A stretch of DNA of 64,000 nucleotides, taken from NCBI RefSeq assembly GCF_053078305.1, contig NZ_CP166879.1. The stretch is one strand, 5' to 3'. Shown one piece after another: positions 12,026 to 52,865 of the stretch. The notes beneath the pieces are model-generated. The model made no database searches. It had not been told where the DNA came from and saw only the letters and a program-made list of their open reading frames with translations. The stretch's first letter is position 1. Every line of letters begins with the position of its first letter. A program made the position numbers and the translations under genes.

Positions 12026-12151
12026 TGAGGCACCACGGCAAAAATTCGGGTCCCCTACACTGATGACAAAGCCGCCCTCTGCTGCCTATTAACTCAAGCA
12101 CCTCCCAACAACTTACAGAAACTTAATTCTAATACCTAATACAGCTGTAAT

Positions 12152-12715
12152 TCAGTTGTGTCGTGGTCGGCCGCGGTTACTTTTTTCGGGAAGCCTGCTA
12201 CGGCCCAGAATAATACCGTGTTCTTTCTGATCTTGTTTAGCCAGGTAGCTGAGGGCGTAACGTAAGTCGTCTACCGCAGATTTATCACTATAGTGAATCA
12301 CGTGATCGATACGCACCGGGTATTTGTCTTTAGCCCGGCACAGATGAAAATAACCCTCCCCTTCCGTGATCCGCCTCCAGATATCCCCCAGTTGCCTGGA
12401 TGTCTGATAAGAGTTCTTGTGACGTTGTCCATCCAGATAGCCGATAAAATGAATATGAAGCCCTTTGTCTGGTGTATATTCCATTACCCAGTAATATCCC
12501 GCCAGCATCGTTTGGGTTTCACTAAGTAAACGGTATATTTCAATACACATACTGTGCTTACAGGAATGCCCGAAACTGGGCGTGTCTTTCCTGTAGGCAA
12601 AATCAATTCTGAAAGGTAACAGTTTAGAAAAACGTTGAAACAGACCTTCCATGTGTTCATTCACGTCTTTCAGAATCGTGAAATTCATTTCGTAATTGGG
12701 GTTAGCATTATACAT
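12152..12715 (-). CDS. YagK/YfjJ-family (inovirus Gp2-like) cryptic-prophage protein
   Basis: 187 aa; position downstream of a yfjI-like gene and alpA matches the CP4-57/CP4-6 arrangement; family call is from memory, not a search. Confidence 0.5.
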   Translation of the reverse strand: MYNANPNYEMNFTILKDVNEHMEGLFQRFSKLLPFRIDFAYRKDTPSFGHSCKHSMCIEIYRLLSETQTMLAGYYWVMEYTPDKGLHIHFIGYLDGQRHKNSYQTSRQLGDIWRRITEGEGYFHLCRAKDKYPVRIDHVIHYSDKSAVDDLRYALSYLAKQDQKEHGIILGRSRLPEKSNRGRPRHN

Positions 12716-13677
12716 TTTATAGTCCTTACTTTATAAAACTCACAGGAAGAGGAAATTACGTAAATGCTGAGGATACAGAAACGTCGTACCACGGCATTAA
12801 TAAACTGGGTAACCAGTATGCAGACAACCTGATAAAACTGTTTCGTATTACCTCATTACAGTAATGGGAGTAATACTTCAGAATACAGTGAGACTCTCTT
12901 AAACTGAGGACCAGTACGAATTACAATGGTAAAAACACACCTCATAGAATTAAGTTTAAGAAAGTACCATTCAATCACTTACAGGAAGTAATCTGATCTT
13001 CACAAAAGTCAGCTATCGAATAGCCACAGGCAACATCGCTATTAGTATTGCCGTACCATTAAGTAAAAACAGAGACTCTGCAGAGAGAGCCTACAGATAT
13101 TTAACCTCACAATAAGAAGATTATTTCATACAGAAAAGATTATATTTACCCATACTTATAAACTGTAACGGAGATATAACGTACGAACTAAAGACAATAT
13201 ACTCTAATAGTGTTCCGGTACGTAACTAGTGTTAAATACAAACCAGACATACATTTAGTGGATTAACTTTCTCAATATTACGCTATGAGTGTAGTAACAT
13301 AATTTACACATAACTAAACCCCATACACCACCACACTGTAGTATATGGGGATAGACGCATTACGCACATACAGAATACTCAGCATAAAGAGGAGTGACAT
13401 TACGATAAAAAGAGACAACATAACTCCCATTAATAATACTAATTAACCTAAATTATTTATTGAATACGAAAACAATGAGGGGGTCTCCTCATCCAAGACT
13501 AAAGCCAGCAATATCCTGAACAACACTCTATCCAATAGTAAACAATGGTTATACCAGTTATATTTGCTGACTGATCTGTACCAGAGTTCTGTAATACAAC
13601 AACGCTGACATGGTAAAAGCATTAGTCTCCTCCGCAAGTAGCAGAGGAGACTATATGTTACTCAACGATTAAGTCGT

Positions 13678-15132
13678 TCAGAGGTCAAAGTTAGGTGCGA
13701 CATACCACGTTTTGTCGTCAATAAACTGTACAACTCTGTTTTGCTCATACAGTAAATCCAGTAACCAGTTGAGTTTATCTTTTTTACGGAAACGGTTCGG
13801 ACCACGCTGTAAAATGTCATTTTTTCTCATACAGCGTATCCCCTTCTCAATGCAACAGCTTTTTATCCAGTTGAAAAGTTCAAGCTCCTCTGGAATGAGT
13901 CGCATAGGTACGGTCAGTGCAGAGTTTTCAAACGTTAACGGACTGGATAACCGAATATACTCATCGCCGTACCATATTGCTAATTCTCTCGCCATTTCAG
14001 CAGTGTAGGGGGAAATGTCACCTTCCTCACCGCTAAAATGGTGAATAAGCCCTGCCAGTCTTGCCATATACTCTGCATTTTTAGCAGCATATTCTCTGAA
14101 GTCTCTTAAAGGCCCCAGAACCGACATCTTCGATTCCACATTGTTGTAATAGTCCGTCCAGATTCTGGCTGCCTGAGGAGAAAAGTGAAGGCAACGCCGC
14201 TCTCCCCTCATAGCCAGGCTTTCATCAATGAGTTCATTTATCCTCTGTTCAAACAAATCCTGATACTGTGATGAATAATTATCTCCGGTTATTATTATCC
14301 TTGTCCCCTGCGTTGATGTTGGTTGACACATCAAAAACCTTGCATGATGTCCTGACGTTTTCACAAGTTCTTTTTTTCGTGTACAAAAACCTTTGTGGTA
14401 AACATCAGGCTGAACCATCACCGATATCGTCAGTCTTGGCTCCTTCAAAAAAATTCCGGGAGATGATTTCCTGTCGATGAAAAGAGAACCACCATCCCAC
14501 AAAGAGTTAAGTATTCCCAGTTTACTCATTGCCCGGCTGTCAAAAATTATCCCACCTTCACTGGATACAAGAGCAAAAGAGCGGTTGCTATCAGAATAAT
14601 ATTTTAACATTCCCTCTATCGTTGTATCATTAAAAATTGTTCGATGTATCTGTGGTGGAACAGGACACTTATTCAGATGTGTTTTAAGCTCTGATTCTGT
14701 TGTCTTATAATCTTTACCGGTACGAATCTCTTTATGAAGTTTTGACTCCAGTGCTTTTTGTTTTTGCGCCCATATTTCCTTTTCTGTACTGTAACTCTCA
14801 ACCAGTTTCGCGTATTCTTCCGCCAGGGCTTCATCCCTGAGATAAAATGCTTTCATAAACACTTTATCCACGGTCGTTTTCCTTTCACCAGAATCAGCCA
14901 GAATCATAGAGTAAATATTAGAGGACCCACGTAAATTTCCTGGTCTGCACACATCAACCTGATTCTGACAGGCAATTGACATCGCTGTTAATGCTGCAGT
15001 TATCGCCATAGCTATAGGTGTCTGTGTATTCTTTTGAGTTTCAATTATTGCATTTCTCGCCAGCGGTGGCATTGCATATATCGGACAAGGATTTTCTGGT
15101 GCAAGTAAGCACATAAATGCCTCTCTTTTCAT
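13678..15132 (-). CDS. YfjI-like (DUF3987-type) protein of P4-like integrative elements
   Basis: 484 aa, directly downstream of alpA-like gene; size and context match CP4-57 yfjI. Confidence 0.5.
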   Translation of the reverse strand: MKREAFMCLLAPENPCPIYAMPPLARNAIIETQKNTQTPIAMAITAALTAMSIACQNQVDVCRPGNLRGSSNIYSMILADSGERKTTVDKVFMKAFYLRDEALAEEYAKLVESYSTEKEIWAQKQKALESKLHKEIRTGKDYKTTESELKTHLNKCPVPPQIHRTIFNDTTIEGMLKYYSDSNRSFALVSSEGGIIFDSRAMSKLGILNSLWDGGSLFIDRKSSPGIFLKEPRLTISVMVQPDVYHKGFCTRKKELVKTSGHHARFLMCQPTSTQGTRIIITGDNYSSQYQDLFEQRINELIDESLAMRGERRCLHFSPQAARIWTDYYNNVESKMSVLGPLRDFREYAAKNAEYMARLAGLIHHFSGEEGDISPYTAEMARELAIWYGDEYIRLSSPLTFENSALTVPMRLIPEELELFNWIKSCCIEKGIRCMRKNDILQRGPNRFRKKDKLNWLLDLLYEQNRVVQFIDDKTWYVAPNFDL

Positions 15133-15362
15133 TAATGGGTTAGTAAAGTAGCAGCAACTCCCGCTATAATAGCGAAATAGCTGCTGTTCAGACCTAATGT
15201 TCTGAGAAATACAGAATATCTGTAGATCTGATGTTTAATAAACCGATAAGGTTAATTCAGTTCATACTGTGTTATTTACCACGAAATATCATTCATGTTT
15301 CTCATTCTTAACACCTCCTAAAATTATTTCACTAACACCTTCCCCCCGGTCTTTTTCCTTTC

Positions 15363-15590
15363 TCAGGAATCAGCCAGAACCATAGTGTAAATATTAACGG
15401 GCCCACGTAAATTTCCGGGGTTGCACACGTCAATCTGATTCTGACAGGCAATTGACATCGCTGTTAATAATGATGTTGTAGTCATAGCCAGAGATGCTTT
15501 TTCATTGTGTTGAGTTTCAATTATTGCATTTCCAGTCATTGATGGTTGCGCATATACTGGATACGGAGTATCCGGTTTGATGTAAGACAT
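15363..15590 (-). pseudogene. Truncated duplicate of the yfjI-like 5' end
   Basis: 75 aa ORF; DNA 15363-15480 is a diverged copy of 14883-15000 (shared ...ctgattctgacaggcaattgacatcgctgttaat...); the protein repeats the NAIIETQ...AMSIACQNQ.DVC.PGNLRG block. Confidence 0.5.
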
Positions 15591-15695
15591 AAATATTTCC
15601 TTTTTTCGTAATAACTTTCGGTTATAGCAGCTATTTCCGCTACAATAGCAACAATAGCTGCTATACAGACTGGATATACTGAAAATACAGACAGT

Positions 15696-15923
15696 TCATC
15701 TGGTCTGTATCCAGCAGAGAAGGTCACTTAACAACCATCCGCAAGATTTCTTTCCGATAGACTTACGTGGTGGAAATGTTCCCTCCCGTTCAAGTTTCCA
15801 CGCTTGTGTACGAGAAATTGACGTGATCTCATATCGTTCCTTTTCACGTACCAGTCTGTCGCATTCAATCCCATAAGCTTTCAAAATGACCAGACGCTGT
15901 TCATCTGTTAATGGAAGCCACAT
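15696..15923 (-). CDS. alpA: AlpA-family prophage transcriptional regulator
   Basis: C-terminal ...ITSISRTQAWKLEREGTFPPRKSIGKKSCGWLLSDLLCWIQ is AlpA-like; likely ATG at 15923-15921 (MWLPLTDEQ) preceded by AGGAGGG; the track ORF begins upstream at a TTG (15944). Confidence 0.75.
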   Translation of the reverse strand: MWLPLTDEQRLVILKAYGIECDRLVREKERYEITSISRTQAWKLEREGTFPPRKSIGKKSCGWLLSDLLCWIQTR

Positions 15924-16614
15924 ACTACCCTCCTGATATATCAATACTTTTTATTTCCGGCATGAGCATGAAATGACTAAGTTTCCCGGATAAACAATGA
16001 GTGAAAGTCACTATCATTCATCCAGTCAACACCTTGCAAATAAAATGTAATACCATGATTTTTATAGGTCAAAATACTGAATTACAATATTAAAATGGCT
16101 TTTAATAGAAAAAATAAAGACATATAGAGCCAAATAAAAACAAGCCGCGACCAATAAAAACAAAAAATTAATATTAAAAATCCATTATGACGATTTTTGT
16201 TGACTAAAATTAGGTTTGGATATATAAATAAATCCATGTAAAATTCAAACAAGGCATGGAGGAGTCGCAGGAAGGTGAAATATTTCCATCTAATTTGTGA
16301 TAATCATCACAAAAATAAGCTACAACAAGCGGAGGAAAAGACAATCTGTTGCTGAACAGACAGAAGCAGGCTACGAATGATCGGAAAATGAAGCAAATAC
16401 GCTTATACAGAAGACGCAGAGGTAACTGACGGAGACAATCACAATCAGGAGAAAATTATCGTAAATAATGTATAAAATCTCAGGATATAAACAAATGTAC
16501 ACAAGCTATCCACGTAATCAGCGGCTGGCTCAGGATTAACGTTTCATTTCAGTGGACAACATCGATTCTGTCTGACAGCGGACCAATATGTAGCAAGCAG
16601 AAACTTCTGACATC

Positions 16615-18252
16615 ATGGTAACTCGGACAATGCAACAAAAGTATCAGTATGATCGTGTTTTATCCGGCGAACTCCACCCATTCCCTGGCATATACGAGGC
16701 GGTTTCCGAACAAATCCTTTTGCTCATTTTTAAAGCACGTCAACTATATCAGGATCCAGAATATCGCCCCTGGTTTGAAGAACAGCACAGAGTACTCTCT
16801 GCATTACGTGCCAATACAGAGCTCCTGAGAATCTTTAGAGAACAAAGAAGCGCTGAAGAACCAAAGCTTACTATTGAAGAGTCTACCTCCCCCCAACCCA
16901 CTCCTTCTGCTCTTACAGATGCGCTTAATGTGATGTGCCATATATACAATGGTTTTGATGAAGGAAATATCAGTCTGAAAACCTGGGGGGCGATGCAAGA
17001 GGTACAGACAACATCAACCTTTATCAGCCCAGGACCGAGAACCTGGAAAACACCTGAACTGGCAAAGTTTGTAGGAGATGATTTATTTAATATTCTGACT
17101 GAATGTAAGGCCTGGAGTTCACCAATTCCAGCAGAAACCCGACAGGGGTATTGCCATCAGGATCTGTCTGTTGCACACTCCTGCACCTCAGAGTTACTGG
17201 CACACCTGAATCAATATCATGAAATTGATGAATCAGCAATACTTGCCAGAGTTATTGGTATAACAGTTAACGGATTCTACAAGAAAAATAATACAGACCT
17301 TCCAGAATGGCTATCCCCCTTTAAAGAGGAACATAAAATATTCAGAGATTGTCCGGAGCAAAATACCGGGGATGTAATCAGACGGAAAGAACAACTGTTG
17401 AAAACAGGACGTACAGAATTCGTGAATAATTTGTGTCGGGTCGCCAACTGGTATGAAATTGAGTCAATATACGATGAATACGTCCGTCTTTATGCCAATG
17501 AAATCATTGACTGGTTCAACAAAACCATGAAGTATTTTAAACCAACAGATTTTATCCGATATACATGGAAATTCGCAACAGTTACTCCGGATAAAGATAC
17601 AGAAACCGGGCATACAACTGCATGGGAAAAGGATTATTGCCAGATAACCATACAACGTGATGAACTTCTGAGGTTGATTCACACCAATACCCTTCAGGAT
17701 GCAGTAATTTATCTTTGTCATTGTCTGCAGAAGGAATACAAGAAATCATCCCAAAATGAGATAGAGTTCCCAGGAATAAAACCTCCGACATCAGAGAGTA
17801 AAATTAATATAACAAATAATATTAAATTTCATTCTCTCCTGGAGCTCAGTAAAGATAATGAGAAGCGTCTGGAAACATTTCAAAAATGGTATGAAAAAAA
17901 TAAAGTTTTGTTAGAAAGTCATAAACAAAAACGAACAGAGAAGATTGACGTTGCCGTACGACTTGTAGGGCTGAAAGCCTATGATCTGCATGAAGGGATT
18001 CCGGATAGTCCAAAACGAAAAGTTAAAGATGGCATAAATGAAGACATCAAAGCCGATACCAGTTTACGCCTGTCAAAGACAAATATAAGTGATACGTCGC
18101 TAAACCGTTATCGCCGCACTGTTAAGGAGATTATCAATAACGAAATTGACGCATTCCTGTTGGAACAGAAGAAAAAAAATAAAAGATTTCCCTACAGTGA
18201 AGATAGAGATGTGATTCGACCTTTATGGGGAAAATGCCTGACCGGGCAGTAG
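16615..18252 (+). CDS. Hypothetical protein (545 aa), AT-rich, no recognisable motif
   Basis: Long ATG-initiated ORF in a low-GC region between alpA and thrW; product unknown. Confidence 0.45.
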   Translation: MVTRTMQQKYQYDRVLSGELHPFPGIYEAVSEQILLLIFKARQLYQDPEYRPWFEEQHRVLSALRANTELLRIFREQRSAEEPKLTIEESTSPQPTPSALTDALNVMCHIYNGFDEGNISLKTWGAMQEVQTTSTFISPGPRTWKTPELAKFVGDDLFNILTECKAWSSPIPAETRQGYCHQDLSVAHSCTSELLAHLNQYHEIDESAILARVIGITVNGFYKKNNTDLPEWLSPFKEEHKIFRDCPEQNTGDVIRRKEQLLKTGRTEFVNNLCRVANWYEIESIYDEYVRLYANEIIDWFNKTMKYFKPTDFIRYTWKFATVTPDKDTETGHTTAWEKDYCQITIQRDELLRLIHTNTLQDAVIYLCHCLQKEYKKSSQNEIEFPGIKPPTSESKINITNNIKFHSLLELSKDNEKRLETFQKWYEKNKVLLESHKQKRTEKIDVAVRLVGLKAYDLHEGIPDSPKRKVKDGINEDIKADTSLRLSKTNISDTSLNRYRRTVKEIINNEIDAFLLEQKKKNKRFPYSEDRDVIRPLWGKCLTGQ

Positions 18253-18338
18253 ATCACAGATGGGATAACATCCCGGTTATCCCCTGTTTGTTCTGCTTCA
18301 GGTTGCCAGAGCTCCAGGAACACGAGGCAATCGGCAAA

Positions 18339-18935
18339 TTATGCGGCTTTTCCATTAACAGATTCGACCACAAGAACAACACCGTGTTTGTTTCGATCAG
18401 GATGTTCACTCCAGATTTCTGATTCAGGAATACTTTCCCCATCATAGCAGATCCGATCACCATCAAACGGATAATACCGTGCGGAATCTGTATCTAAGAT
18501 AAACACCTTAAGATTCGTTGAACGACGCGCTATATGCTGCCAGAGGGCTTTACCTCCTTCATATTGCTCGTTATCACTTAATAGTATAACGCCTGCTTTT
18601 GTGGCTATTGTTTCATAAACAAACGTAGCAAGGCTAACATCACGTACAGCGCCATCGACAACAATCCCTTCAATCTGAGCAACGTCCTGTTCTTCCCAGA
18701 ATTTCCGGACAACCCCCCCTTCAAGCTGTGAACGACGCTGAAGCTCCAGAGTGGCAACAACCTTATAGCGAATATCACCATCAATAACAGAAGGTGCAGC
18801 TTCGATTACCGCAGCGAACGGAGTCTTTGGATCCCAGATGATCTGGTAAAGCACACCCTGAATAGTTACTCCATCCAGTATCGAAAAACGACGAGCTACA
18901 GTAGCAGGGGAGTAAGACATTGGAATGACAGCCAT
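18339..18935 (-). CDS. Hypothetical protein (198 aa) next to the tRNA attachment site; not integrase-like
   Basis: ORF convergent with the 545-aa gene; occupies the position usually held by an integrase but is too short and shows no tyrosine-recombinase pattern. Confidence 0.4.
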   Translation of the reverse strand: MAVIPMSYSPATVARRFSILDGVTIQGVLYQIIWDPKTPFAAVIEAAPSVIDGDIRYKVVATLELQRRSQLEGGVVRKFWEEQDVAQIEGIVVDGAVRDVSLATFVYETIATKAGVILLSDNEQYEGGKALWQHIARRSTNLKVFILDTDSARYYPFDGDRICYDGESIPESEIWSEHPDRNKHGVVLVVESVNGKAA

Positions 18936-19245
18936 TTTATGGCCTAAAATTTGAAAACATCAGTATCAATACTGACCTCATCAGTCTGAGCATATATTGA
19001 TAAAGTTTTTATGTTTACACTCAATAAATACCTTGCTAAACAACTAATAGCGATGTCTACATTGCCATTCGACATGCTTACAATTTTTGTCAACAAGAAA
19101 GTGAATTTATATCAACGGTAAGAAGTAAACACGAGGACACCAAAACCAAATGTATACACTTTTGTGCTTTGTGTCCCCTGTGTGTACCCAAATGACAAAC
19201 TGCAAGAAAATCTAGGCACACACTTATCTAACTTATTGATTTAAA

Positions 19246-19321
19246 TGGTGCCGATAATAGGAGTCGAACCTACGACCTTCGCATTACGAATGCGCTGCTC
19301 TACCAACTGAGCTATATCGGC
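19246..19321 (-). tRNA. thrW: tRNA-Thr (anticodon CGT)
   Basis: Reverse complement reads GCCGATATAGCTCAGTTGGTAGAGCAGCGCATTCGTAATGCGAAGGTCGTAGGTTCGACTCCTATTATCGGCACCA, 76 nt with cloverleaf-compatible stems and CCA end. Confidence 0.9.
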
Positions 19322-19435
19322 CCTGAAAGGACATGTTCACGAACGTGAATCACGGTGGACAAGGTTAAAACTAACCGGGCGATGCGTCAATGGCCTTGTG
19401 AATCAAATGGCTACTTTTGCATCACCCGGTTTTAT

Positions 19436-41244: not shown

Positions 41245-41508
41245 TTATGATTTTTTATTAATTTCACTTATCCATATTTTAAATTCCTTTACTAAATAAG
41301 GATTTTCATTCTTTGATAATATTTCTTGTAGATATCGACAAGTCTCTTTATTTCCCATATCAAGTACGTATAAAGCAATCGAATCAACGATATCATTCTC
41401 AAAAGAATCAATAGCAGCACAATATATGTTTATTAAATCTCGCAAACCATCATTAACATCTACTTCCAGCTTATTTAAAGCTTCATTATATTGATGTCGG
41501 ATACTCAT
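41245..41508 (-). CDS. Hypothetical small protein (87 aa)
   Basis: AT-rich ORF at the edge of the acquired T6SS-distal block. Confidence 0.35.
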   Translation of the reverse strand: MSIRHQYNEALNKLEVDVNDGLRDLINIYCAAIDSFENDIVDSIALYVLDMGNKETCRYLQEILSKNENPYLVKEFKIWISEINKKS

Positions 41509-41556
41509 AAAACCTCACATTAGTTATATAGGAGCCGCCCCGAAAACAGGGCAAGA

Positions 41557-42693
41557 TTACGAAAGCCCGCACCCCGCAAGGACTGACGCGAGGTAGTTTC
41601 TGTCCATGGCTGCTTTTCTCATCTTACGTCTTAGCCCTGCCTTGAATACCTTATCATTCGTCAAAATATTAATAGTGATATGCCTTATCCCTGAAAATAA
41701 TTCTGCTGCATTTCCTCTTCTTATTCTGCAGTCGTCTTCATTCATTATCACGTCCAGGCGCCAGTGCAGCTTATTTTCCACGTGCCAGTGATTCCGGATC
41801 GCTGTGGCGAACTTCTCTGCAGTTAAATCAGCAGAGCTGATATAATATCTGACCGTCATTTCGGGCTCTTTCTTTTGTTCTGCTATTATTGACCGAAAGG
41901 AGACTGCCATGCATAATTTTTTTAGTCCTTTCCATTCAAACGTGAAATCAATAAGTTCATCAGGGACATCGCAAACAATATGAAGACGGGTTTCTTCTCT
42001 GCCGTGACTCTTTTCACTTATTTCGTAACTGTCATGCTTTGGATTATTTAATTCTTTCAGCGGGAATTTTTCCTCAAAGGCTTTATTTAGTCGCCCCTGA
42101 TTTCCCTTTACAGCGAATAAATAATCACCTCCCTGTTTTTGTATCTTTTCTGCAATATCTTTCTGGCAACCCATCGCATCAGTTGTGATGATTTTTCCTT
42201 TAATATCCATCATGTTAAGAAGTTCAGGAATAGCTGTAATCTCATTGGATTTCTCATCCGTCTTGATCTGCCCGAGGACCAGACTGTGCATAGTTGAGAA
42301 CGCACTAATGACATGAATCGCTCCCCTGCAGCGACTCTTGTCATAAGAGTGCCGGAGCGTTGTTCCATCAATTGCAATAACGTCTTTATCATTTGAGGAA
42401 TGGCGGTCACGCATTCAGTTAATAAAGCACTCGTGAAATTTTGTAGGACTGATACAGGATACAACTCTGGCAATGGTATCGTGAACAGGAATACCATTTT
42501 CAAAATCACCATATTGCTTCAAAAAATCGAGATATGTTTCACCAAAATCCTCTATATCTTCCCAACCCTCTGCACCAGAAATGACGGCACAAATAGTCAA
42601 CAGTAGAATATCTGACAATTTATGTTCCACTTTCCAGGCTTGTCTGTAATCGGGGATAATAGAAATATGTTCCATCAACTTTTTAAGTTCCAT
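41557..42693 (-). pseudogene. ISAs1-family (H-repeat-associated) transposase with in-frame TGA
   Basis: ORFs 42415..42693 (92 aa) and 41557..42414 (285 aa) are in the same frame, separated only by TGA at 42417-42415 (...[16 protein letters not shown]...). Confidence 0.7.
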
Positions 42694-43031
42694 TTTGTTC
42701 TCCTTATTTATGCAAGGAGTATTTGATCATGTATAAGCAATAAAAAACAGCTTCAGGTAATGAGGAATATCTCAATTTTTAAACATAAAATGCTAATTAT
42801 TTAGTACAAAAAGTGTACTTCTGATGATCTTTCCCTGACCTGTAACCGCTTTGATTCCAAACGAATATCTTTTAATGACATAATAAATTTATATTCATTC
42901 AGTCTTCAGGTAAACAAAATAGACACTATAAATAATAGTTATCATGAAAATTCATAAACACCATCTATTCTATGAGATGATTATCAGTAATTATGGAAAC
43001 ATCAGCAACATGCTTATGAGATGGTATACAT

Positions 43032-43526
43032 TCACTGAGATATTTCCGTTTCTGTGATTAATACCGGATAAGCATTTAATTGCAAAAGCTGCATCAGATT
43101 ATCGCAGACAACAGGCACCAATAATAATCCATCAGCCTGCTTATTTAATAGTTCCATTCGGTCTGCTGATGCAACATTCACAACCAAACCGAGGGCATTT
43201 AGCGATTTAAACTTCTCCAGGTGTTCACTCATCCATCGCAGAGAAAAAGGATCATCGCCAATTATAAAAACAGGTCCCCAGCCAGTTAATAACTGACGTT
43301 TCGTTACAGTACCGGGATGAAGTTGAGTACATATTACAGGAAATACCCCCTGTCGTGATGGCTCCGATGACGAATGTAATTCAGAAACATTTCCTGTTGT
43401 CAACGAAAGATTAATACCCATGAGTAATCGCGAAACGCTCTCACTTTCCTGGTTAGTTCGCCAAACAAGGGTTGCACTAGTCTGAAAAGAAAAAAATATT
43501 ATTATATATAAACATAGTTTTAACAT
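43032..43526 (-). CDS. Hypothetical secreted protein (164 aa)
   Basis: ORF with N-terminal hydrophobic signal-like segment. Confidence 0.35.
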   Translation of the reverse strand: MLKLCLYIIIFFSFQTSATLVWRTNQESESVSRLLMGINLSLTTGNVSELHSSSEPSRQGVFPVICTQLHPGTVTKRQLLTGWGPVFIIGDDPFSLRWMSEHLEKFKSLNALGLVVNVASADRMELLNKQADGLLLVPVVCDNLMQLLQLNAYPVLITETEISQ

Positions 43527-43564
43527 AATACAATCAGTCCATTTAATTCATGCTATAAAACAAC

Positions 43565-44116
43565 TCATTGATTAATTGGCAAGGTACCATCCCGGTTAAA
43601 ATCATCAAATATTTTATCAATTTCCTTTGCGGTTTCTATATATATAATCTCCTTTGTCCTTGCATTAAATATAGCCCAAGCCTCGGGGTTGGACGTCCCA
43701 CCAAATCTTACAAAAAAATTTGACTTCATGTTTTTATATAAATTAATTTCTGGAAAAGGATCTTCTCCAATATTAGAAATATTAGGGGGTGTAAATTTAT
43801 GTCTTTCAGAAAACTCTTTTGGTAAGATAGTTTCACTGCCATTTATGGTATTTATCCAGAAACTACTACCATTATATTCCAGCATTAAGCGCAGTTTTAA
43901 CGGTATTTTATCTTGTTCTTTAACGACAACTAATACCTTTTTAACAACCTGCTGTGCCGACGGTCCTATTGTATTCCAAAGAGATAGTAAACCACTTTTA
44001 CTATACACAACTTCCTGAATAAAATAAATATTCGTTTTATCACCTTCGATAACATCTTCCATTAATCCCTCCAGACACAACCAAATTACATGGCAAGAGT
44101 ATAATTCTAATGCCAC
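43565..44116 (-). CDS. Hypothetical protein (183 aa), possible orphan immunity protein
   Basis: ORF only; location in the effector/immunity tail. Confidence 0.35.
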   Translation of the reverse strand: MALELYSCHVIWLCLEGLMEDVIEGDKTNIYFIQEVVYSKSGLLSLWNTIGPSAQQVVKKVLVVVKEQDKIPLKLRLMLEYNGSSFWINTINGSETILPKEFSERHKFTPPNISNIGEDPFPEINLYKNMKSNFFVRFGGTSNPEAWAIFNARTKEIIYIETAKEIDKIFDDFNRDGTLPINQ

Positions 44117-44486: not shown

Positions 44487-44900
44487 TCATCTATTAATGG
44501 CGAATGAAATAGATAATGAATTAAAATAATCATCTAGTAAAAATTGTTTGATACCGGGATCATAAGCCCGCATAACAGAGTGTTTTGTTTCCAATAATGG
44601 GATAATAGTATTCACTCGAGGAACTACAGCACCTAAAAATATAATATCATTATTTTTTTGGACTAATAAAACAGGAAGAGTATCAAGATCTACCTCTGAA
44701 ACCATATCAGAATGCCGTTCAATATCCATCCAGATAAAGAAATCGTTTGGATATTTTTCCGATAATGCAATTAATGGATTTTTCCAGTCATTACAATTAT
44801 TGCACCAATCCGCACACAAACAAACAACTAGTTTATTATCATTATTAGCGGAAATAAACTCCCCAATCTGCTGGATATTATCCTCAGGGTAATATATCAT
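44487..44900 (-). CDS. Thioredoxin-like protein with C-x2-C-x-C motif
   Basis: 137 aa; CADWCNNCNDWK motif. Confidence 0.45.
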   Translation of the reverse strand: MIYYPEDNIQQIGEFISANNDNKLVVCLCADWCNNCNDWKNPLIALSEKYPNDFFIWMDIERHSDMVSEVDLDTLPVLLVQKNNDIIFLGAVVPRVNTIIPLLETKHSVMRAYDPGIKQFLLDDYFNSLSISFAINR

Positions 44901-44911
44901 TTCTTTTCCTT

Positions 44912-46147
44912 TTAATAATTAAGCAAATTATCCTTTGGTGAGGTATTCTTGTCCAAATGGAAAAGATGCCATGAAGCAATCCAGCGAACGAGTTGGCTTC
45001 CGTCAGAAAAATTAGTATTACACCAAGATGCAGTCACTGATTTCCCCAGGAACAGTCTTTCCTCATTACGATACTGTTGACACATCGATGTAACTTTATG
45101 AATATCAGGCATTCCTATGCCGGTTCCAAACACATTTAACCGAGAGGTAATCTCAGGCAACTTTTCATCCTTTGCCGGTAATAAATATTCCTTATCATCT
45201 ATATCAATGCCAGTTATCAGACTTACAGCAACAAACGCAATACGAGAAAGCTCTTCTTTTTCCATTAATGAAAGTAATAGAGGTAGAGTTTTTGTATTTG
45301 CATAATGGGCATAAAAAATGATTTGTAAATACTCAGGTAAACCAGAAATAAATGCAAAAGGGTAAGTCAGTTCAGAACAACATTGCCCAAGAAGTCGAAC
45401 TAACATCTCAGTTTGCTGGTTTTTCCTGATACCTTCAATGCCTCTAAGAGGCGGCAGGGTTAAATAATCATCAATCAACAGACATAATGGATTAATCATC
45501 ATTGACTTATCTGATGAAAGCCAACATGCAGCACTAACTGCTGAAAATCTGACTGATAATTCATTGCTACCAAAATATACCGTTAACGCAGGAAGATAGC
45601 TCTGTAATCCAAGTTTGCGAATATAATCCAGCACAGCTACCTTTTCTTGTATATTTCCGTTATCTAGTTTTTTTATCAAAAAATCTTCTGATAAGTGTAA
45701 TTTGCTCTGAGAACAAATATTTAATGCTATCTGAACCTCGGAAGGTATAGAGGAAAGTAAGAATTCATTAACAGTACCATAAACATGTTCTTTAGCTGAA
45801 TGTGATAACGCAGAGACATACCCATTCAACGTTGTATCTGCATATTTAGATACATACGACCAGGTTGCTTTCATCCAGGCAGGATTCTGACACTGATTCG
45901 CCAGAAAACCGCAAACAAACGCTTCTCCCTGAGAGTGCCAGCGTCTCAGTGCCGCATAGCTCTCCTCCCATCCATCATCACCAGCAACATGTAATCCCTC
46001 CAGATTAGCATCAATATATTGATTAAATTGCCTGAGATCGGCGCTTTTAACTAATGGCGAAAATCTGCTTTCTTCTTTCTGAAGCCAGTAAAATGCCGCA
46101 TTCGCGGCATGCTGACGAATAATCGGTTGTATTACCTGATGATTCAT
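44912..46147 (-). CDS. Hypothetical protein (about 411 aa from an internal start; track ORF extends to 46246)
   Basis: Long ORF downstream of the GHH effector; start at MNHQVIQP would abut the upstream stop. Confidence 0.4.
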   Translation of the reverse strand: MNHQVIQPIIRQHAANAAFYWLQKEESRFSPLVKSADLRQFNQYIDANLEGLHVAGDDGWEESYAALRRWHSQGEAFVCGFLANQCQNPAWMKATWSYVSKYADTTLNGYVSALSHSAKEHVYGTVNEFLLSSIPSEVQIALNICSQSKLHLSEDFLIKKLDNGNIQEKVAVLDYIRKLGLQSYLPALTVYFGSNELSVRFSAVSAACWLSSDKSMMINPLCLLIDDYLTLPPLRGIEGIRKNQQTEMLVRLLGQCCSELTYPFAFISGLPEYLQIIFYAHYANTKTLPLLLSLMEKEELSRIAFVAVSLITGIDIDDKEYLLPAKDEKLPEITSRLNVFGTGIGMPDIHKVTSMCQQYRNEERLFLGKSVTASWCNTNFSDGSQLVRWIASWHLFHLDKNTSPKDNLLNY

Positions 46148-46148
46148 A

Positions 46149-47177
46149 CTAGTCTTCTGCCTCATCATCAGTCTCATCATCTGACTGCCATTCAACAGAA
46201 TTAATGAGTAAATGCCATTCCTGTCCGTCGTGCCATGCTGCACCATACATTCCGGCCATTAGCATCACACCATCACCCACTGATAAATGCCCTACCGCTA
46301 CAGCTATTTCAGAAGGAAGATCCACAGGAATTAATGTATCACCATCCAGACACCATAGACCGTAATCAGATGTACACCACACTTTTCCGGCATGCCAGAC
46401 TATATCTTCGAAGGGAAGACTATAACCACCCGCAGAGACTTTTTCCCATTTATTCCCACGGCCTTTAAATAATATACCAGATTGACCACCAATGTAGACA
46501 TAACCATCCCCTGCACAACACACTGTTTCTAGATAGATGTTTGAGGGAAAATTAATTTGCTCCCATTCTGCTCCAGAAAAATGCCAGACATTTCCCTTAC
46601 CGCCGACTACATACAAATCATCATAGGAAAAACCATCTATATCTCTTAGTTTAAATTCATCGCCAAATCTACCTTTTTCTTTTGAGTAATCAAAAACCGG
46701 GAGATTCAAACAGAGTGACTGCCAGTCATTAACTCCGTCTCTGTATCCCACAGAGTTATTGTACCCAACAATATACAGTCTTCCTGAAATATTTTTAATT
46801 TTCGTTATTATATTTCTTAGAGGACCGTCAATTCCGAAAGGAATTTTTTTCTCTCTGCTATCATATTTACAACTACGGGAATAAACATATCCCTCATCAT
46901 CAACACAAACAACTTCGTCATAGCTATTATATGATGCACTACCTATATATAACTGCCCCATGTTTTTAAGTGGCTGAAGTGATATACAATCGTCTGGGCT
47001 ACCATCTAAATAGATCCCGACTTCACCTTTAGTTACTGTATTTTCATCAATAACACTTGCTTTTCGACTCTCTTTAATATTACGAACAGAAAAATGGAAA
47101 AAATCCTTATTTCTTACAGTACAATCCTTAATATACCATTTTTTAAAAATTGCAATGTTCTTATCAGTAATTTTCAT
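46149..47177 (-). CDS. Candidate immunity protein with repeated G/W-rich beta-propeller-like units
   Basis: Directly downstream of the GHH-nuclease effector; repeated ...G.....W... units; start taken at MKITDKNIAIFKKW. Confidence 0.4.
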   Translation of the reverse strand: MKITDKNIAIFKKWYIKDCTVRNKDFFHFSVRNIKESRKASVIDENTVTKGEVGIYLDGSPDDCISLQPLKNMGQLYIGSASYNSYDEVVCVDDEGYVYSRSCKYDSREKKIPFGIDGPLRNIITKIKNISGRLYIVGYNNSVGYRDGVNDWQSLCLNLPVFDYSKEKGRFGDEFKLRDIDGFSYDDLYVVGGKGNVWHFSGAEWEQINFPSNIYLETVCCAGDGYVYIGGQSGILFKGRGNKWEKVSAGGYSLPFEDIVWHAGKVWCTSDYGLWCLDGDTLIPVDLPSEIAVAVGHLSVGDGVMLMAGMYGAAWHDGQEWHLLINSVEWQSDDETDDEAED

Positions 47178-47184
47178 ATAAATA

Positions 47185-48828
47185 TTACCTCTTATTACCT
47201 GTAGGTGTTTCAGTATTCTGAGAATCAACTTCATCTTCAGTAAATGCTTTTCCAGCTACCGCTGGCATATCATCATCGCAATTCTTATAATAATTATCCA
47301 GTTGTTTTCTAAGGCAGGCTCTGCTGCATCTTGATTCCGGGAATGTTCGTTCAAATCCATCCAGGGCAATTTCTTTGGCATCTTCGTAATCAATTTTATC
47401 TTTATCGCTGAACCAGCCACTTTTCTTATAAGCTTTGATATCTTTGATCATCTCATCATGCATTTTGCCATGCGTTCCGTTTCCATTATTTGTGCCCTCT
47501 ACACAAACTGTCGGTGCCCCGCCTTTCGAATAACCACTGCAATGTCCTTTAGCCATTTCATCAGGAATAAGATGGTGGCCTGTCTGTCCGGGACAGCACC
47601 CTTTTCCAGTTTCGATACTCTTTTTGGCTCCGGTCTTATTATAATCAACGAGAAGGCATCGTCTTGCACGCGTACAGGGATTTATTCTCGCCAGCGCCCC
47701 CATTCCTGTTGCCATCATTTGAGATGGCGTCATATTTTTTAGCGTATTTTCCAGTTCAGCTTTGGCCTGTTTGACTAAAGATAAAATATCTTTTATCTCA
47801 TCTAATTTTTTATACGCTTCAATACCTAACTTGGCTGTATCATAAGCTGTACCAATTGCATCACAGACGTTCCATATTGTTGCAATTGTCTCGGTTACAA
47901 CTGCTCCAACGCCAGCAGCCGTAGCACCTATCGTACCCACGGCCCACCTTCCAGCCGCGTGTGCTGCTAGTTTTTCTGCTTTATGCAGAGCAGCAGTTTG
48001 TGCTTTATCAATAATTTCTTGTTTTAGTTGCTCAAGCATTGGCTCTATTAGTGAAGCCACTTTTTTATTAAAATCCTCCGTCAGTTCTTTCAATAATTTG
48101 TTATACTCCTCCAGGCCAAAACGTGGCTTAATCCACAAACCAGTACAATGAGAAAAAATCCATTCATTCTCCGGAGTTTTTAGTTTAGCGTATGTATTTC
48201 TGACTTTATCATCCAGCGTTTCCAGTTTCCCACCAATTTCTTTACCCATTAATTTCATGAAGTTTTTATTTTTTACATGATTCCTTCTGTTTTCCTCTTT
48301 CTTTTTTTCATCTTCATCATCATTTTTGTTATCTTCATCCGGTTTACATGCCTTCCTTATCCGATCTTCTTCCTTTTTACACTGTACAGGCATATCAAGA
48401 GTATCCTTATATGTGCCTGTAATAGTATTTCCTGGCTCCGAACCATGATTGTGCGTCATTAAATCTTCATGGCGTGCCACACACTTCCCTTCGAATTTTA
48501 CATTTGGCGACCATGATTTAAAGTAGGCTTTTCCTTTAATGACGCCGGTAATTACACCTTTGGGTTGGGATTGTGTAGCGGGTTCATCTCCGGTACTGGT
48601 TGAAAAAAAGGAAATATCTTCTTTAGCCACCATCGAATTGCATATGAATACGGTTATGGTTCCGTCCTTCATCGTTGAGGCATATGCAGTATTTGGATAA
48701 GGTACCACTATCGGGCCAGCCGGAGGAGAAGGCGGTGTCCAGCACGGATCGGGAAACACCGCTTTTGACACGCCGTCCGATGCCTTGGAGCTTGCCTCCC
48801 GGCTATTGATATAAACTTGAGTTTCCAT
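47185..48828 (-). CDS. T6SS effector: N-terminal DUF4150 (PAAR-like) domain, C-terminal HNH/EndoVII-fold GHH nuclease toxin domain
   Basis: 547 aa; N-terminal ...DPCWTPPSPPAGPIVVPYPNTAYAS...; Lys/Glu/Asp-rich linker; C-terminal CCPGQTGHHLIPDE. Confidence 0.7.
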   Translation of the reverse strand: METQVYINSREASSKASDGVSKAVFPDPCWTPPSPPAGPIVVPYPNTAYASTMKDGTITVFICNSMVAKEDISFFSTSTGDEPATQSQPKGVITGVIKGKAYFKSWSPNVKFEGKCVARHEDLMTHNHGSEPGNTITGTYKDTLDMPVQCKKEEDRIRKACKPDEDNKNDDEDEKKKEENRRNHVKNKNFMKLMGKEIGGKLETLDDKVRNTYAKLKTPENEWIFSHCTGLWIKPRFGLEEYNKLLKELTEDFNKKVASLIEPMLEQLKQEIIDKAQTAALHKAEKLAAHAAGRWAVGTIGATAAGVGAVVTETIATIWNVCDAIGTAYDTAKLGIEAYKKLDEIKDILSLVKQAKAELENTLKNMTPSQMMATGMGALARINPCTRARRCLLVDYNKTGAKKSIETGKGCCPGQTGHHLIPDEMAKGHCSGYSKGGAPTVCVEGTNNGNGTHGKMHDEMIKDIKAYKKSGWFSDKDKIDYEDAKEIALDGFERTFPESRCSRACLRKQLDNYYKNCDDDMPAVAGKAFTEDEVDSQNTETPTGNKR

Positions 48829-48995: not shown

Positions 48996-49445
48996 TCACC
49001 TTTCTATTATGGGGAAGGTTAATCCCTTTGAAAATTTATTTCCAACATCAGACTCTTTGGTATAAATATTAGTAATCACACTTAATTTTGCACTAATTTT
49101 TATTTTTTCATTGTCTTTTCTAAAACTTTCAATCTCACTGCTTAATATAACCCAATCAAACATAACACTTTCCCCTGAATGTATTACAGTTAAGTGAGAC
49201 AATAATTCCTTGCTTGTAAGATTCGGACGGAGGTAAAATCCGTCACTCCCATTAAAATTCATTAATTTTATTGCTGGACCTGTTTTTCTTAAATACTCAA
49301 AGGGGACATAAATATCACGGCCACTATCATTCCGAAAATTAATATCAATCAACAAGTTATTTTTTTTAGTATACAAGCATTCAGAAGTTTTCGAGTTATC
49401 ACACTCAACCCAAATGGCAAAATCGTTTACACTAAGATCACTCAT
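48996..49445 (-). CDS. Candidate immunity protein for the upstream metallopeptidase effector
   Basis: 149 aa ORF immediately downstream of the effector. Confidence 0.4.
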   Translation of the reverse strand: MSDLSVNDFAIWVECDNSKTSECLYTKKNNLLIDINFRNDSGRDIYVPFEYLRKTGPAIKLMNFNGSDGFYLRPNLTSKELLSHLTVIHSGESVMFDWVILSSEIESFRKDNEKIKISAKLSVITNIYTKESDVGNKFSKGLTFPIIER

Positions 49446-49505: not shown

Positions 49506-50699
49506 CTACAGCATAACTTCACATTTCGTTGTTATATTGCGTTTAGAATTTTTCATTATATCATTAGCTTCTATAGCAATAGGCCAGCAATGTCTTTCCA
49601 GAACAATCGTGTTGTCCACTGCCGACATTATTGTTGATGAAGGGTCATTAGTAATTCCACCATCATATGGGACATTTATCTTATTATCCATTGTTCCATC
49701 TGGTTTATAGTATGCAACTGTTTCTCCACCTGCTGGATCATAAGCATATTCATCAGGTAAACCAAAGCAATGCCCGAACTCATGGGCATATATCCAATCA
49801 CGAGTTGAACCAGATACATTCATCTCGAATCCAGTAACACCTTCTCTTGGAAATTTTTTGTGAATATTCATTAAATAATGTTCGTTTGATTTTACCCATA
49901 AAATCTTAAATCGAACAGGTAGCTCAATATCTCCACAAATAGCATCTTTTAGTTTCAATTTGAATTTATTATTCCAGTATTTACTTACCCCTTTGAGCAT
50001 TTTCGCTTTTGCATTTTTTATGTTTTTTTTACTCACACCTGCACCACCCACAGTTTTAAATCTTACCGTCACTATAACTTTTCTATCTTTTATTATATTA
50101 ATATTTAATTTAAATCTTCTTTCAATGAGATAATTATGAGAAAGCCCATTAGAATCAAAGGCATCCGCATAACGCTTTGTAATGTTAACACTAACTTCTT
50201 TTTCGTAATTATCTTGCCAGCATAGCATTTTCAAGACGTTATCCCATATTCTATTCCCAACAGATATAGGCTCTGATAAATAATAGAATAAATCTGTATT
50301 TCCTGGCTGAGAACCGTGGTTGTGTGACATTAAATCTTCATGACGTGCAACGCATTTCCCTTCAAACTTTACATTTGGCGACCATGTCCTGAAGTAAGCT
50401 TTTCCTTTAATTACCCCGGTTATTACGCCTTTTGGCTGTGACTGCGTGGCTGGCTCATCTCCTGTACTGGTTGAAAAACAGGAAACATCTTCCTTTGCCA
50501 CCATCGAGTTACAAACAAATACGGTCGTTGTACCGTCTTTCAACGTTGAGGCATAGGCTGTGTTAGGATAAGGAACCACGATGGGACCCGCAGGAGGAGA
50601 TGGTGGCGTCCAGCAAGGATCAGGAAATGCAGCTTTAGATACACCATCAGATGCCTTTGAACAAGCCTCCCGGTTGTTGATATAAACACGCGTATCCAT
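49506..50699 (-). CDS. T6SS effector: N-terminal DUF4150 (PAAR-like) domain, C-terminal HExxH zinc-metallopeptidase-like toxin domain
   Basis: Start taken at MDTRVYINNRE; first about 130 aa nearly identical to the 47185..48828 effector; C-terminal YAHEFGHCFGLPDEY. Confidence 0.7.
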   Translation of the reverse strand: MDTRVYINNREACSKASDGVSKAAFPDPCWTPPSPPAGPIVVPYPNTAYASTLKDGTTTVFVCNSMVAKEDVSCFSTSTGDEPATQSQPKGVITGVIKGKAYFRTWSPNVKFEGKCVARHEDLMSHNHGSQPGNTDLFYYLSEPISVGNRIWDNVLKMLCWQDNYEKEVSVNITKRYADAFDSNGLSHNYLIERRFKLNINIIKDRKVIVTVRFKTVGGAGVSKKNIKNAKAKMLKGVSKYWNNKFKLKLKDAICGDIELPVRFKILWVKSNEHYLMNIHKKFPREGVTGFEMNVSGSTRDWIYAHEFGHCFGLPDEYAYDPAGGETVAYYKPDGTMDNKINVPYDGGITNDPSSTIMSAVDNTIVLERHCWPIAIEANDIMKNSKRNITTKCEVML

Positions 50700-50703
50700 A
50701 TTT

Positions 50704-51717
50704 TTATCCTCTGTAATACTCTGCAACCAGCGCAACCCGAAGTCCACTGTCACCACTGAAATGAACCAGTGCTCTTTCTCCCGTATCAGGGAATCGACAC
50801 ATCATTTCATTCAGATAGGCCAGTGTCAGTGGCCCGGATGCCGCCCCGGTTTCTCCCAGATTGCTGGCAAGCTGGTAATGAGGGTATTGTTTTTTTTTCT
50901 TTTCCAGACACCGGGTGATTGCCAGAGCAGTTTCACGGAAATACCATGACTCACCAGTGACACCACTAATATGAAAGTCTGTTTCTGCTAATAAAACCCC
51001 TGCATCCTGAATTGCTTTCCGGATTGCAACAGATAATCCTTTAGCCATATTAGCTTTATCATTTTGTAGGATATGAGCATCTTCGTTGCTGACACCGACA
51101 CCGGTAATACAAATGCCCTGAATACAACTATCTGGTTTACAAAACACAATAGCCCCGGCACCTTCCCCCGGAATAAAACCATCCCTGTTGCTGGTGCATA
51201 ATACGCGTTCATGAGTAAGAAGATAATTTATTCTTGCTGGTGAAAAATAACTATCCACACCGACCACAAGAGCATATGAAGCAAGTCCGGAGTATAGAAT
51301 ACGCTGAGCTTCTGTAATCGCAGAACCAATCCCTGTCTTCCCTCCCTGTATACATATAGAAGATTCATGCCAGGTTGTTTTTACTCTACTAAAAAGAAAC
51401 TCATTTCCTGATGAGCCATAACATTGCTCTGCACATTCTGATAAAAGAAAAATCAGACATGTATTTTCTTTTGTCATTCCAGGTGTTTTTAAAATACACT
51501 CAGCCACTACATTTTCAAACATCCAGAGTAGCCGCTCATCACCCCAGGTATCATTCTTATATAATTGAGCACCAATAAGTGGTTTTCCATTTAAGTCATA
51601 AAAAGTTGTTTCAGCAAAATGATCCAGACCCGAGCGAATGGCCGCTGATGCAGAAGGAACTGAATATCCTATACTGCAACACATTCCGGCTGCCGCAATA
51701 AATAATGGTGATGCCAT
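50704..51717 (-). CDS. Beta-ketoacyl synthase-like (thiolase-fold) protein with degenerate active site
   Basis: 337 aa; N-terminal PLFIAAAGMCCSIGYS and RDGFIPGEGAGAIVF resemble KAS I/II blocks; positions aligned by eye to the catalytic Cys and His are Gly/Lys and Glu. Confidence 0.5.
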   Translation of the reverse strand: MASPLFIAAAGMCCSIGYSVPSASAAIRSGLDHFAETTFYDLNGKPLIGAQLYKNDTWGDERLLWMFENVVAECILKTPGMTKENTCLIFLLSECAEQCYGSSGNEFLFSRVKTTWHESSICIQGGKTGIGSAITEAQRILYSGLASYALVVGVDSYFSPARINYLLTHERVLCTSNRDGFIPGEGAGAIVFCKPDSCIQGICITGVGVSNEDAHILQNDKANMAKGLSVAIRKAIQDAGVLLAETDFHISGVTGESWYFRETALAITRCLEKKKKQYPHYQLASNLGETGAASGPLTLAYLNEMMCRFPDTGERALVHFSGDSGLRVALVAEYYRG

Positions 51718-51722
51718 AATAA

Positions 51723-52865
51723 CTATGCTCCTGTTTCTGTTACAGGTTTATTCGTTAATTCTGGATTATTGTTTTTTTCTCCGCATCCACCGCAGGTTTC
51801 CCCTCCCCCCGCAGCTCGTTGCTGCCACCAGGTTTTACCCACAGGCCCTATAGCAACAGTGTGAATTTCCTGAATCCGTCGCTTAAGAGGTATACTTGTA
51901 CGCCAGACTACACTAAAACGCTCCTCATTGGGTTCAAAATAAAGCGTATCAACAACCGGCATTAATTCATGAGCTTCATAATCCATCGTTAAAATTCTAA
52001 CGGGCATTTGGTTTATATGAGGTAGCTGAAATTCAATGACTGAGCGTTCTTTATGCATATTTATCAACATAACTTTTTCACCACCCTGCGGATATGCGGT
52101 CTGTTGATCAGGTGGTGCGCTCTGAAAATAACGCTCATCAAAATCCTCCGGAAGAAAGGGGGAGACTTCTGCACGCCATCGTTCGTCATATGTTCCGGCA
52201 TACTGTAAACGTAACGGATGGTTTCTTGGCCGGGCGGAAAATGCTCCCGGCTCCGGATGTGATTCTGGACGTGTCACGCTATCTTGTGGTAGTTCAACCA
52301 ATGGCAGACGTGAGTTAATGAATACGGTTTCATCCCGATGATTGCCATAACCGATTCCAACAATATTGCTGGAAAATATTTCCCGATTCTCATTTCCCTG
52401 TACATCTTTCCAGACATACTCTCCACCAAAGGCATTACCATAATGTAATGAGACTGACTGTATGAACTCTGTATCAGATATAATCCAGTCTGACGTCTTT
52501 TTCTGCCAGTAGCGCGGACCAAATACCTTTAGACTCTTATCGACTTGACCTACAATTGCTCTTGATTCTGTCTGATAATTATTCCCCTCGCTTACAAAAT
52601 AAGTTGTTGCGTTAAATAAAACATCACATTTCTCTTTATACCTGACATAATCGGCCTCATATAATACAGCAGAGAATCCAGGTTCACCCACATATATGTC
52701 ACTTTCTACCAATGGCTGAGGTGGTAATAGTGGGCGAGGGCGTCGATTGTTTACGGGGATCTGATAAGTTGCTTTAATTACAACTACAAGATAATCTTTC
52801 CCATTTTTATCTGTTGCAGTGAAAACATCAGCTATCGTGTGTTTTGCAGCATTAAAAATTTCCAT
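51723..52865 (-). CDS. Putative DUF2169-family T6SS adaptor
   Basis: 380 aa ORF between vgrG and the DUF4150 effectors, the canonical position of DUF2169 adaptors; assignment is positional. Confidence 0.45.
   Translation of the reverse strand: MEIFNAAKHTIADVFTATDKNGKDYLVVVIKATYQIPVNNRRPRPLLPPQPLVESDIYVGEPGFSAVLYEADYVRYKEKCDVLFNATTYFVSEGNNYQTESRAIVGQVDKSLKVFGPRYWQKKTSDWIISDTEFIQSVSLHYGNAFGGEYVWKDVQGNENREIFSSNIVGIGYGNHRDETVFINSRLPLVELPQDSVTRPESHPEPGAFSARPRNHPLRLQYAGTYDERWRAEVSPFLPEDFDERYFQSAPPDQQTAYPQGGEKVMLINMHKERSVIEFQLPHINQMPVRILTMDYEAHELMPVVDTLYFEPNEERFSVVWRTSIPLKRRIQEIHTVAIGPVGKTWWQQRAAGGGETCGGCGEKNNNPELTNKPVTETGA

Follow-up and report, generated by a model that had tools for sequence, protein, structure and literature searches.

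The primary effector (pef) operon of Proteus mirabilis HI4320 (PMI0750-0758) consists of hcp, vgrG and pefA-G (Alteri et al. 2013, PMC3764213; Alteri et al. 2017, PMC5714391). Here we consider three genes at positions 44487-47177 of a 64,000-nucleotide (nt) window, the whole stretch of DNA analysed, from contig NZ_CP166879.1 (assembly GCF_053078305.1). The window is a piece of an Escherichia coli chromosome, and the three genes form the tail of an effector cluster of a type VI secretion system (T6SS). They probably correspond to pefE, pefF and pefG, that is, to one immunity gene and two conserved attacker-side accessory factors. The finding is real but largely explained, the arrangement having been in the literature since 2013.

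In P. mirabilis, the nine genes PMI0750-0758 are co-transcribed, as shown by reverse-transcription PCR (RT-PCR). The product of PMI0756 was predicted to be a seven-bladed propeller, that of PMI0757 to be ARM-repeat-like, and that of PMI0758 to be a thioredoxin. Immunity requires PMI0756 (pefE), and this gene is sufficient to confer it. Mutants in PMI0757 (pefF) and PMI0758 (pefG) keep immunity but lose killing, and the PMI0758::kan (pefG::kan) mutant is complemented by pefG alone (all PMC3764213). PefD is a GHH2 toxin neutralised by PefE, and pefDE alone confer no killing ability on a strain lacking pef (PMC5714391). A 2023 preprint reports six disulfides in the AlphaFold model of PefD, and its authors suggest that PefE and PefF keep the effector in place while PefG catalyses disulfide formation, perhaps to promote export (10.1101/2023.03.28.534661).

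Arrangements of this type are classed as DUF2169 'synteny type A', the vgrG1b/Tse7 cluster of Pseudomonas aeruginosa being another example (JBC 2025, PMC11883445). According to secondary descriptions of that cluster (PA0095-PA0101), it encodes the deoxyribonuclease (DNase) Tse7, the immunity protein Tsi7 (PA0100) and, as the last gene, the HEAT-repeat protein PA0101 (PMC7970981); Tsi7, of about 340 amino acids (aa), is described as structurally similar to GH74-like (propeller) proteins (PMC11872809). Going by these descriptions, a DUF4150+Tox-GHH2 effector is accompanied, as is predicted for E. coli, by a propeller-like immunity protein of about 340 aa and a terminal HEAT gene. Unlike the E. 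coli tail, the cluster has a HEAT gene but no thioredoxin in the published descriptions (PMC7970981).

The E. coli tail compared with the pef operon

An earlier note on this DNA, made from the sequence alone, had described a three-gene tail behind the GHH effector. Indeed, three co-directional open reading frames (ORFs) lie on the minus strand directly downstream of a Tox-PAAR-like/Tox-GHH2 protein, the PefD-like T6SS effector of 547 aa (47185-48828). They encode a PefE-like beta-propeller of 342 aa (46149-47177), a PefF-like HEAT/ARM alpha-solenoid of 411 aa (44912-46147) and a PefG-like thioredoxin-fold protein of 137 aa (44487-44900). Judged by the many conserved homologues of each, all three are real genes.

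The pef operon has the same gene families in the same order as the E. coli cluster, from VgrG through the thioredoxin-like protein of about 130 aa, and the cysteines of the toxin are conserved. Matches to PefD, PefE, PefF and PefG are full-length in blastp, each tail pair covering more than 90% of both proteins: 39% identity for the effector and PefD (E 2e-116), 30% for the propeller and PefE (E 1e-46), 30% for the HEAT protein and PefF (E 3e-57), and 45% for the thioredoxin-like protein and PefG (E 7e-37). The sizes typical of pef-type loci are shared as well, about 320-340 aa for the propeller, 410-420 aa for the ARM/HEAT protein and 130 aa for the thioredoxin-like protein. The folds are those expected of the pef type, namely a seven-bladed beta-propeller, an ARM/HEAT solenoid and a thioredoxin fold with CxxC; the AlphaFold2 models of two tail proteins are confident (predicted local distance difference test 92.9 for the propeller and 92.4 for the other).

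The pef operon is also present among the loci that we collected. A relative of the HEAT protein (P0135, E 2.7e-61) represents a Proteus cluster whose locus is the P. mirabilis pef operon, with the order Hcp, VgrG, DUF6484, DUF2169, a 341-aa protein, a 524-aa PAAR-like+GHH2 protein, a 320-aa protein, a 423-aa protein and a 130-aa thioredoxin. These sizes fit those published for PefD (524 aa) and PefE (320 aa).

The genes of the tail are closely packed. The earlier note spoke of overlapping or abutting starts; the genes abut, with gaps of 7 nt between effector and propeller, 1 nt between propeller and HEAT gene, and 11 nt between HEAT and thioredoxin-like genes, and none overlap. Each gene has a plausible ribosome-binding site, and no terminator-like site was found on the minus strand within the tail; overall, the promoter and terminator consensus scans gave what is expected from shuffled sequences and are uninformative. 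It is plausible, from the gaps of 1-11 nt and the RT-PCR in P. mirabilis, that the effector and the tail form one transcript. None of the three tail proteins has a signal peptide-like N-terminus on inspection of the sequences by eye, which is consistent with action in the cytoplasm.

If the assignment holds, the operon in full would comprise vgrG, the DUF6484, DUF2169 and thiolase-like genes, the PAAR-like/GHH2 toxin gene and the propeller, HEAT and thioredoxin genes, the tail being the last three. Homology, synteny, folds and motif conservation are what the E. coli tail itself displays, at 30-45% identity; the roles in immunity and killing were demonstrated in P. mirabilis only. In this way three E. 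coli genes are assigned to an experimentally studied effector operon, and its predicted antidote gene is pointed out.

The propeller gene and its toxin

The effector has a Tox-PAAR-like and a Tox-GHH2 domain in Pfam (E 9.6e-27 and 1e-9, respectively). An N-terminal PAAR-like (DUF4150) domain is followed by a helical linker and a C-terminal Tox-GHH2 nuclease domain of the HNH/EndoVII type, with the GHH motif at residues 417-419 and further motif histidines H453 and H457. Nine cysteines are near-invariant in the toxin domain across 46 sequences, beside the GHH and HxxxH catalytic and metal-binding motifs. Twelve cysteines of the effector, those of the toxin domain plus three in the linker, align with PefD. 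A sequence search of the PDB with the effector found no relative.

The propeller gene starts at ATG 47177, giving 342 aa, with the Shine-Dalgarno box AAGAGG 10 nt upstream. This start is preferred because it is the one used by RefSeq in strain A16, because homologues align from that residue and because of the Shine-Dalgarno box. The earlier note had given the first tail protein as 361 aa, which is merely the longest ORF, starting at 47234 within the effector gene; its end coordinate for the tail, 47177, already fits the 342-aa start.

The propeller protein matches no family in Pfam or NCBIfam, and a PDB sequence search with it found no relative. Its AlphaFold2 model is all-beta, and the Foldseek matches are seven-bladed WD40-type propellers (RACK1, Bub3, dynein IC). 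The family contains more than 300 clusters, which come from beta- and gammaproteobacteria and from myxobacteria, and a contig often carries several paralogues; close homologues occur in Pseudomonas spp.

The context of these genes was compared in 49 loci, found by scanning one genome per species with a motif from the HEAT protein N-terminus, so that all co-occurrence figures are conditional on the presence of a HEAT gene. The loci come from Enterobacterales, Burkholderiales, Rhodocyclales, Pseudomonas and others. Their order is strongly conserved: DUF2169, thiolase-like, PAAR-like (fused or split), GHH2 toxin, at least one propeller, HEAT and thioredoxin-like genes. A propeller gene directly follows the GHH2 toxin in all 43 toxin ORFs. 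There are also 35 extra propeller copies, 17 of them behind another propeller and 18 elsewhere.

Other E. coli strains carry two more variants of the GHH2 toxin, 64% and 34% identical to that of the window, and each has its own propeller (57% and 29% identical to the window propeller, respectively). The HEAT and thioredoxin-like genes occur once in the E. coli arrays, at the array end. Thus the propeller gene is distributed like a cognate immunity gene that is at times an orphan, and the HEAT and thioredoxin-like genes are distributed like accessory genes present once in each cluster. The propeller is predicted to be the cognate immunity protein of the GHH2 toxin, of the PefE family, given the homology to PefE, the one-to-one pairing with GHH2 toxins and the divergence in step with the toxin. 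It would bind and neutralise the GHH2 DNase domain in the producer and in sibling cells.

An alternative is that the HEAT protein, the thioredoxin-like protein or both are extra or orphan immunity proteins, the tail being a poly-immunity array against this or other toxins. Imm-HEAT proteins do exist in polymorphic toxin systems, for Ntox34 and Tox-REase-7, and the same survey gives no immunity family for Tox-GHH2 (PMC3482391). Orphan immunity arrays exist in related loci too; however, they are made of propeller paralogues, never of HEAT or thioredoxin-like genes, which are single-copy, have no one-to-one pairing with toxins and are unrelated to the propeller. Moreover, P. mirabilis pefF and pefG mutants are immune yet killing-defective, and pefE alone restores immunity (PMC3764213). 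We regard this alternative as very unlikely. The HEAT protein as an Imm-HEAT immunity protein was rejected on copy number, lack of toxin pairing and the P. mirabilis phenotypes. The earlier note had proposed either an immunity gene with orphan companions or a set of accessory factors; the outcome is a mixture, with a candidate immunity role for the propeller only, candidate accessory roles for the other two genes, and no orphan immunity gene.

In two E. coli strains, PS10-3 (locus at 9488-18692) and 2017-02-2CC (9233-19636), the window-type effector is missing. The array there begins with two other pairs of GHH2 toxin and propeller genes, and the window-type propeller, HEAT and thioredoxin-like genes persist downstream of these, after a fragment of a transposase gene. 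In 2017-02-2CC the entire array is at another chromosomal site, near nhoA/yddH, with insertions of insertion sequence (IS) elements and group II introns.

The propeller family has a near-invariant N-terminal segment D-C-x-V-R, in which D18 and V21 hardly vary across the alignment and C19 is kept in the consensus. A second conserved motif is CCAGDG (C220, C221). These motifs could matter if the immunity protein joins the redox handling proposed below.

The HEAT and thioredoxin-like pair

The HEAT protein scores 87 bits against TIGR02270 (E 1.5e-24, mostly in the N-terminal half), below the curated cutoff of 206.8 bits, and all 40 aligned relatives match the same model, with the best at E 4.9e-119. 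Hence it is a diverged relative of this family rather than a cutoff-passing member. A word-based search for homologues gave 7 enterobacterial clusters only, and an exhaustive profile search reached a family of 1019 clusters. A PDB sequence search with the HEAT protein found no relative.

The thioredoxin-like protein matches Pfam Thioredoxin (PF00085; E 1e-6, 29.1 bits against a gathering score of 23.5). Against the TrxA equivalog TIGR01068 it scores 26.4 bits, the cutoff being 96.8 bits. Its fold and motif are those of a thioredoxin, but it is unlikely to be an orthologue of TrxA or TrxC. The earlier note had read its cysteine motif as C-x2-C-x-C; the actual motif is C27-x-C29-x3-C33-x2-C36, reading VVCLCADWCNNC (VVC27LC29ADW-C33NNC36), that is, the canonical site W-C-x-x-C (W32-C33-N-N-C36) with two more cysteines upstream, and there is a cis-Pro motif T-L-P. 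The two additional cysteines, C27 and C29, distinguish it from PefG. In 35 of 35 aligned thioredoxin-like proteins the WCxxC site and the cis-Pro (LP) are invariant and the x-x dipeptide is variable, which argues for a chemically active thiol-disulfide site.

The upstream cysteines vary within the family. Four aligned sequences of the Enterobacterales type have an extra cysteine upstream of WCNNC (C-A-x-W-C-N-N-C), and the thioredoxin-like proteins of the window and of Enterobacillus have a second one (C27-x-C29; codons 27-29, window positions 44820-44811). C27 occupies the position of the buried Asp26 of E. coli TrxA, where betaproteobacterial homologues carry G-A.

The two genes are linked. 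The thioredoxin-like gene lies directly downstream of the full-length HEAT gene in 37 of 45 cases, often with overlapping stop and start codons, and this linkage spans beta- and gammaproteobacteria. In Salmonella and Klebsiella the two homologues are adjacent, with consecutive locus tags; close homologues of the thioredoxin-like protein occur only in E. coli/Shigella, Salmonella, Klebsiella and Citrobacter. The pair is present in 12 of 5426 complete E. coli genomes. Given the 37 of 45 cases, and since the 2013 account of the pef operon already includes a thioredoxin, the earlier remark that a thiol-disulfide protein is unusual here is not borne out for this class of effector. Across beta- and gammaproteobacteria, GHH2-nuclease T6SS cassettes contain the HEAT and thioredoxin-like pair as a conserved element. 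Presence of the thioredoxin-like gene offers no contrast to compare with toxin type, as all sampled loci, with or without it, have GHH2 toxins with the same cysteines.

A rearranged locus (1209-4761 of its contig) has the order thiolase-like, stand-alone PAAR-like (129 aa), HEAT, thioredoxin-like and a detached 436-aa GHH2 toxin. Here, with the toxin separated from the PAAR-like domain, the HEAT and thioredoxin-like genes are still neighbours.

By analogy with P. mirabilis, the HEAT protein is predicted to be an accessory factor required for effector function, and the thioredoxin-like protein a cytoplasmic accessory thiol-disulfide oxidoreductase required likewise. Both would act on the attacker side, for whichever GHH2 effectors the cluster carries, and would be needed for toxin deployment. 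The T6SS adaptors and chaperones (DUF2169, DUF4123/Tap, DUF1795/Eag and the thiolase-like PRK06147) are likewise operon-encoded and non-secreted, and are needed for effector loading. The HEAT protein is tied to these adaptors in that it occurs fused to the thiolase-like adaptor candidate: 3.8% of PRK06147 proteins are fused to TIGR02270 (PMC7714669), and such fusions link the HEAT protein to PRK06147. Known adaptors, however, are encoded upstream of the effectors, whereas the HEAT and thioredoxin-like genes are usually downstream of the immunity gene, and a role in loading is one that we infer for them.

One such natural fusion (P0185), of a thiolase-like (PefC-like) domain and a PefF-like HEAT domain, was found at 411-2996 of a metagenome contig. 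Its thiolase-like domain is 37% identical to the product of window positions 50704-51717. A propeller gene precedes it and a gene for a WCDKC thioredoxin-like protein follows.

In the mechanism that we infer as the most likely, the HEAT protein would serve as scaffold or co-chaperone, in partnership with the thiolase-like adaptor. The WCxxC protein would act on the conserved cysteines of the effector, setting or editing their redox or disulfide state, and such handling would make the effector stable, loadable and exportable. A more specific version of this mechanism is put forward only tentatively. The thioredoxin-like protein may be a dedicated cytoplasmic maturation enzyme of the cysteine-rich nuclease, working on a scaffold of the HEAT and thiolase-like proteins, and perhaps in concert with the propeller. 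In the reducing cytoplasm of the producer it would either install or proof-read disulfides among the 12 conserved cysteines, or else maintain these cysteines in a reduced or metal-free state. The effector would thereby be competent for export and become active only after reduction in the prey cytoplasm. If so, the T6SS effector operon would come with its own redox 'safety catch'.

Another possibility is that the thioredoxin-like protein, possibly with the HEAT protein, is delivered alongside the effector and acts in the prey, for example by refolding or protecting the toxin as it crosses the oxidising periplasm. This was the original suggestion of Alteri et al. (PMC3764213), and the invariant redox motif and the cysteine-rich toxin would be in keeping with redox control being needed once the toxin has left the cytoplasm of the producer. 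Another T6SS toxin, TreX, requires the prey-cell TrxA (Dumont et al. 2024, PMC11606950), and is similar to the system proposed here in that its activity requires a thioredoxin-fold protein. There, however, the housekeeping TrxA of the target cell is a redox-independent chaperone of a cysteine-free ADP-ribosyltransferase, whereas the tail has a dedicated thioredoxin-like gene in the effector operon of the attacker, beside a cysteine-rich nuclease. Neither tail protein is fused to PAAR, VgrG or Hcp or has a known cargo marker, and the fusions with thiolase-like proteins tie the HEAT protein to an adaptor-type protein acting in the producer. Co-delivery is rather improbable.

Several observations weigh against the assignment of the tail to pefE, pefF and pefG, or against the functions attached to it. 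At 30-45% identity between the E. coli and P. mirabilis proteins, the roles could have shifted. The P. mirabilis pefF transposon mutant needed both pefF and pefG for complementation, thus the independent requirement for pefF is less cleanly demonstrated than that for pefG. PefE itself has also been reported as needed for killing, and so 'immunity only' may be too simple. The thioredoxin-like gene is absent from 7 of 45 HEAT loci, a sample itself drawn with the HEAT motif, and from the published descriptions of the vgrG1b cluster; hence it is not universally required for GHH2 effectors. Finally, a disulfide-forming role in the cytoplasm is biochemically unusual.

With the pef assignment preferred, the remaining interest is in the biochemistry of the HEAT and thioredoxin-like pair. 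E. coli would be a tractable host for asking why a DNase that acts in the cytoplasm and is rich in invariant cysteines travels with its own WCxxC protein.

The surrounding island

The housekeeping genes gmhA/lpcA, fadE, ivy and yafV extend to about 41.1 kb of the window. Beyond lies a low-GC island (33-42% GC, against about 52% in the flanks) which bears the T6SS. The region is 100% identical to strain A16, where RefSeq gives the following order on the minus strand: hcp, vgrG, DUF6484, DUF2169, a hypothetical thiolase-like gene, a DUF4150 protein, a hypothetical gene, a PAAR-like gene, a 'WD40/YVTN/BNR-like repeat protein', a hypothetical gene and a 'thioredoxin domain protein', followed by decayed mobile DNA.

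The decayed DNA between yafV and the tail (41245-44116) contains an ISAs1 transposase pseudogene with split ORFs (41557-42693), a fragment of a PFL_4695-family protein of integrative and conjugative elements (ICE; 43032-43526) and family-less ORFs (41245-41508, 43565-44116).

It might be supposed that the HEAT and thioredoxin-like genes are hitch-hikers of this island, adjacent by chance or by the history of mobile elements and with no role in the effector system. The ISAs1 pseudogene and the ICE protein fragment downstream of the tail would be in keeping with this, and the promoter and terminator scans of the tail do not bear on it. But the pair stays linked to GHH2/propeller modules over dozens of genera and through rearrangements, and the P. 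mirabilis genetics give the homologues a role in killing. Such an explanation is scarcely credible, and the pef assignment is kept.

Upstream of the effector, also on the minus strand, are a DUF2169 adaptor gene (51723-52865, annotated in RefSeq), whose product is 47% identical to PefB (E 3e-100), and a gene for a thiolase-like/PRK06147-type protein (50704-51717), 41% identical to PefC (E 1e-78). These homologues of PefB and PefC (50704-52865) define the cluster type.

Two genes of the E. coli cluster, again on the minus strand, have no counterpart in the pef operon; they separate the thiolase-like gene from that of the GHH2 effector. The first encodes a second PAAR-like effector (49506-50756), with a HEFGH metalloprotease motif at the C-terminus and weak matches to Peptidase_M6 and TIGR03296 there. 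The second, a family-less ORF of 149 aa at its 3' side (48996-49445), is a possible immunity gene of that effector. The N-terminal 135 aa of the metalloprotease-type effector are about 90% identical to the N-terminus of the GHH2 effector, and this near-identity looks like a substrate for recombination by which effectors could be swapped.

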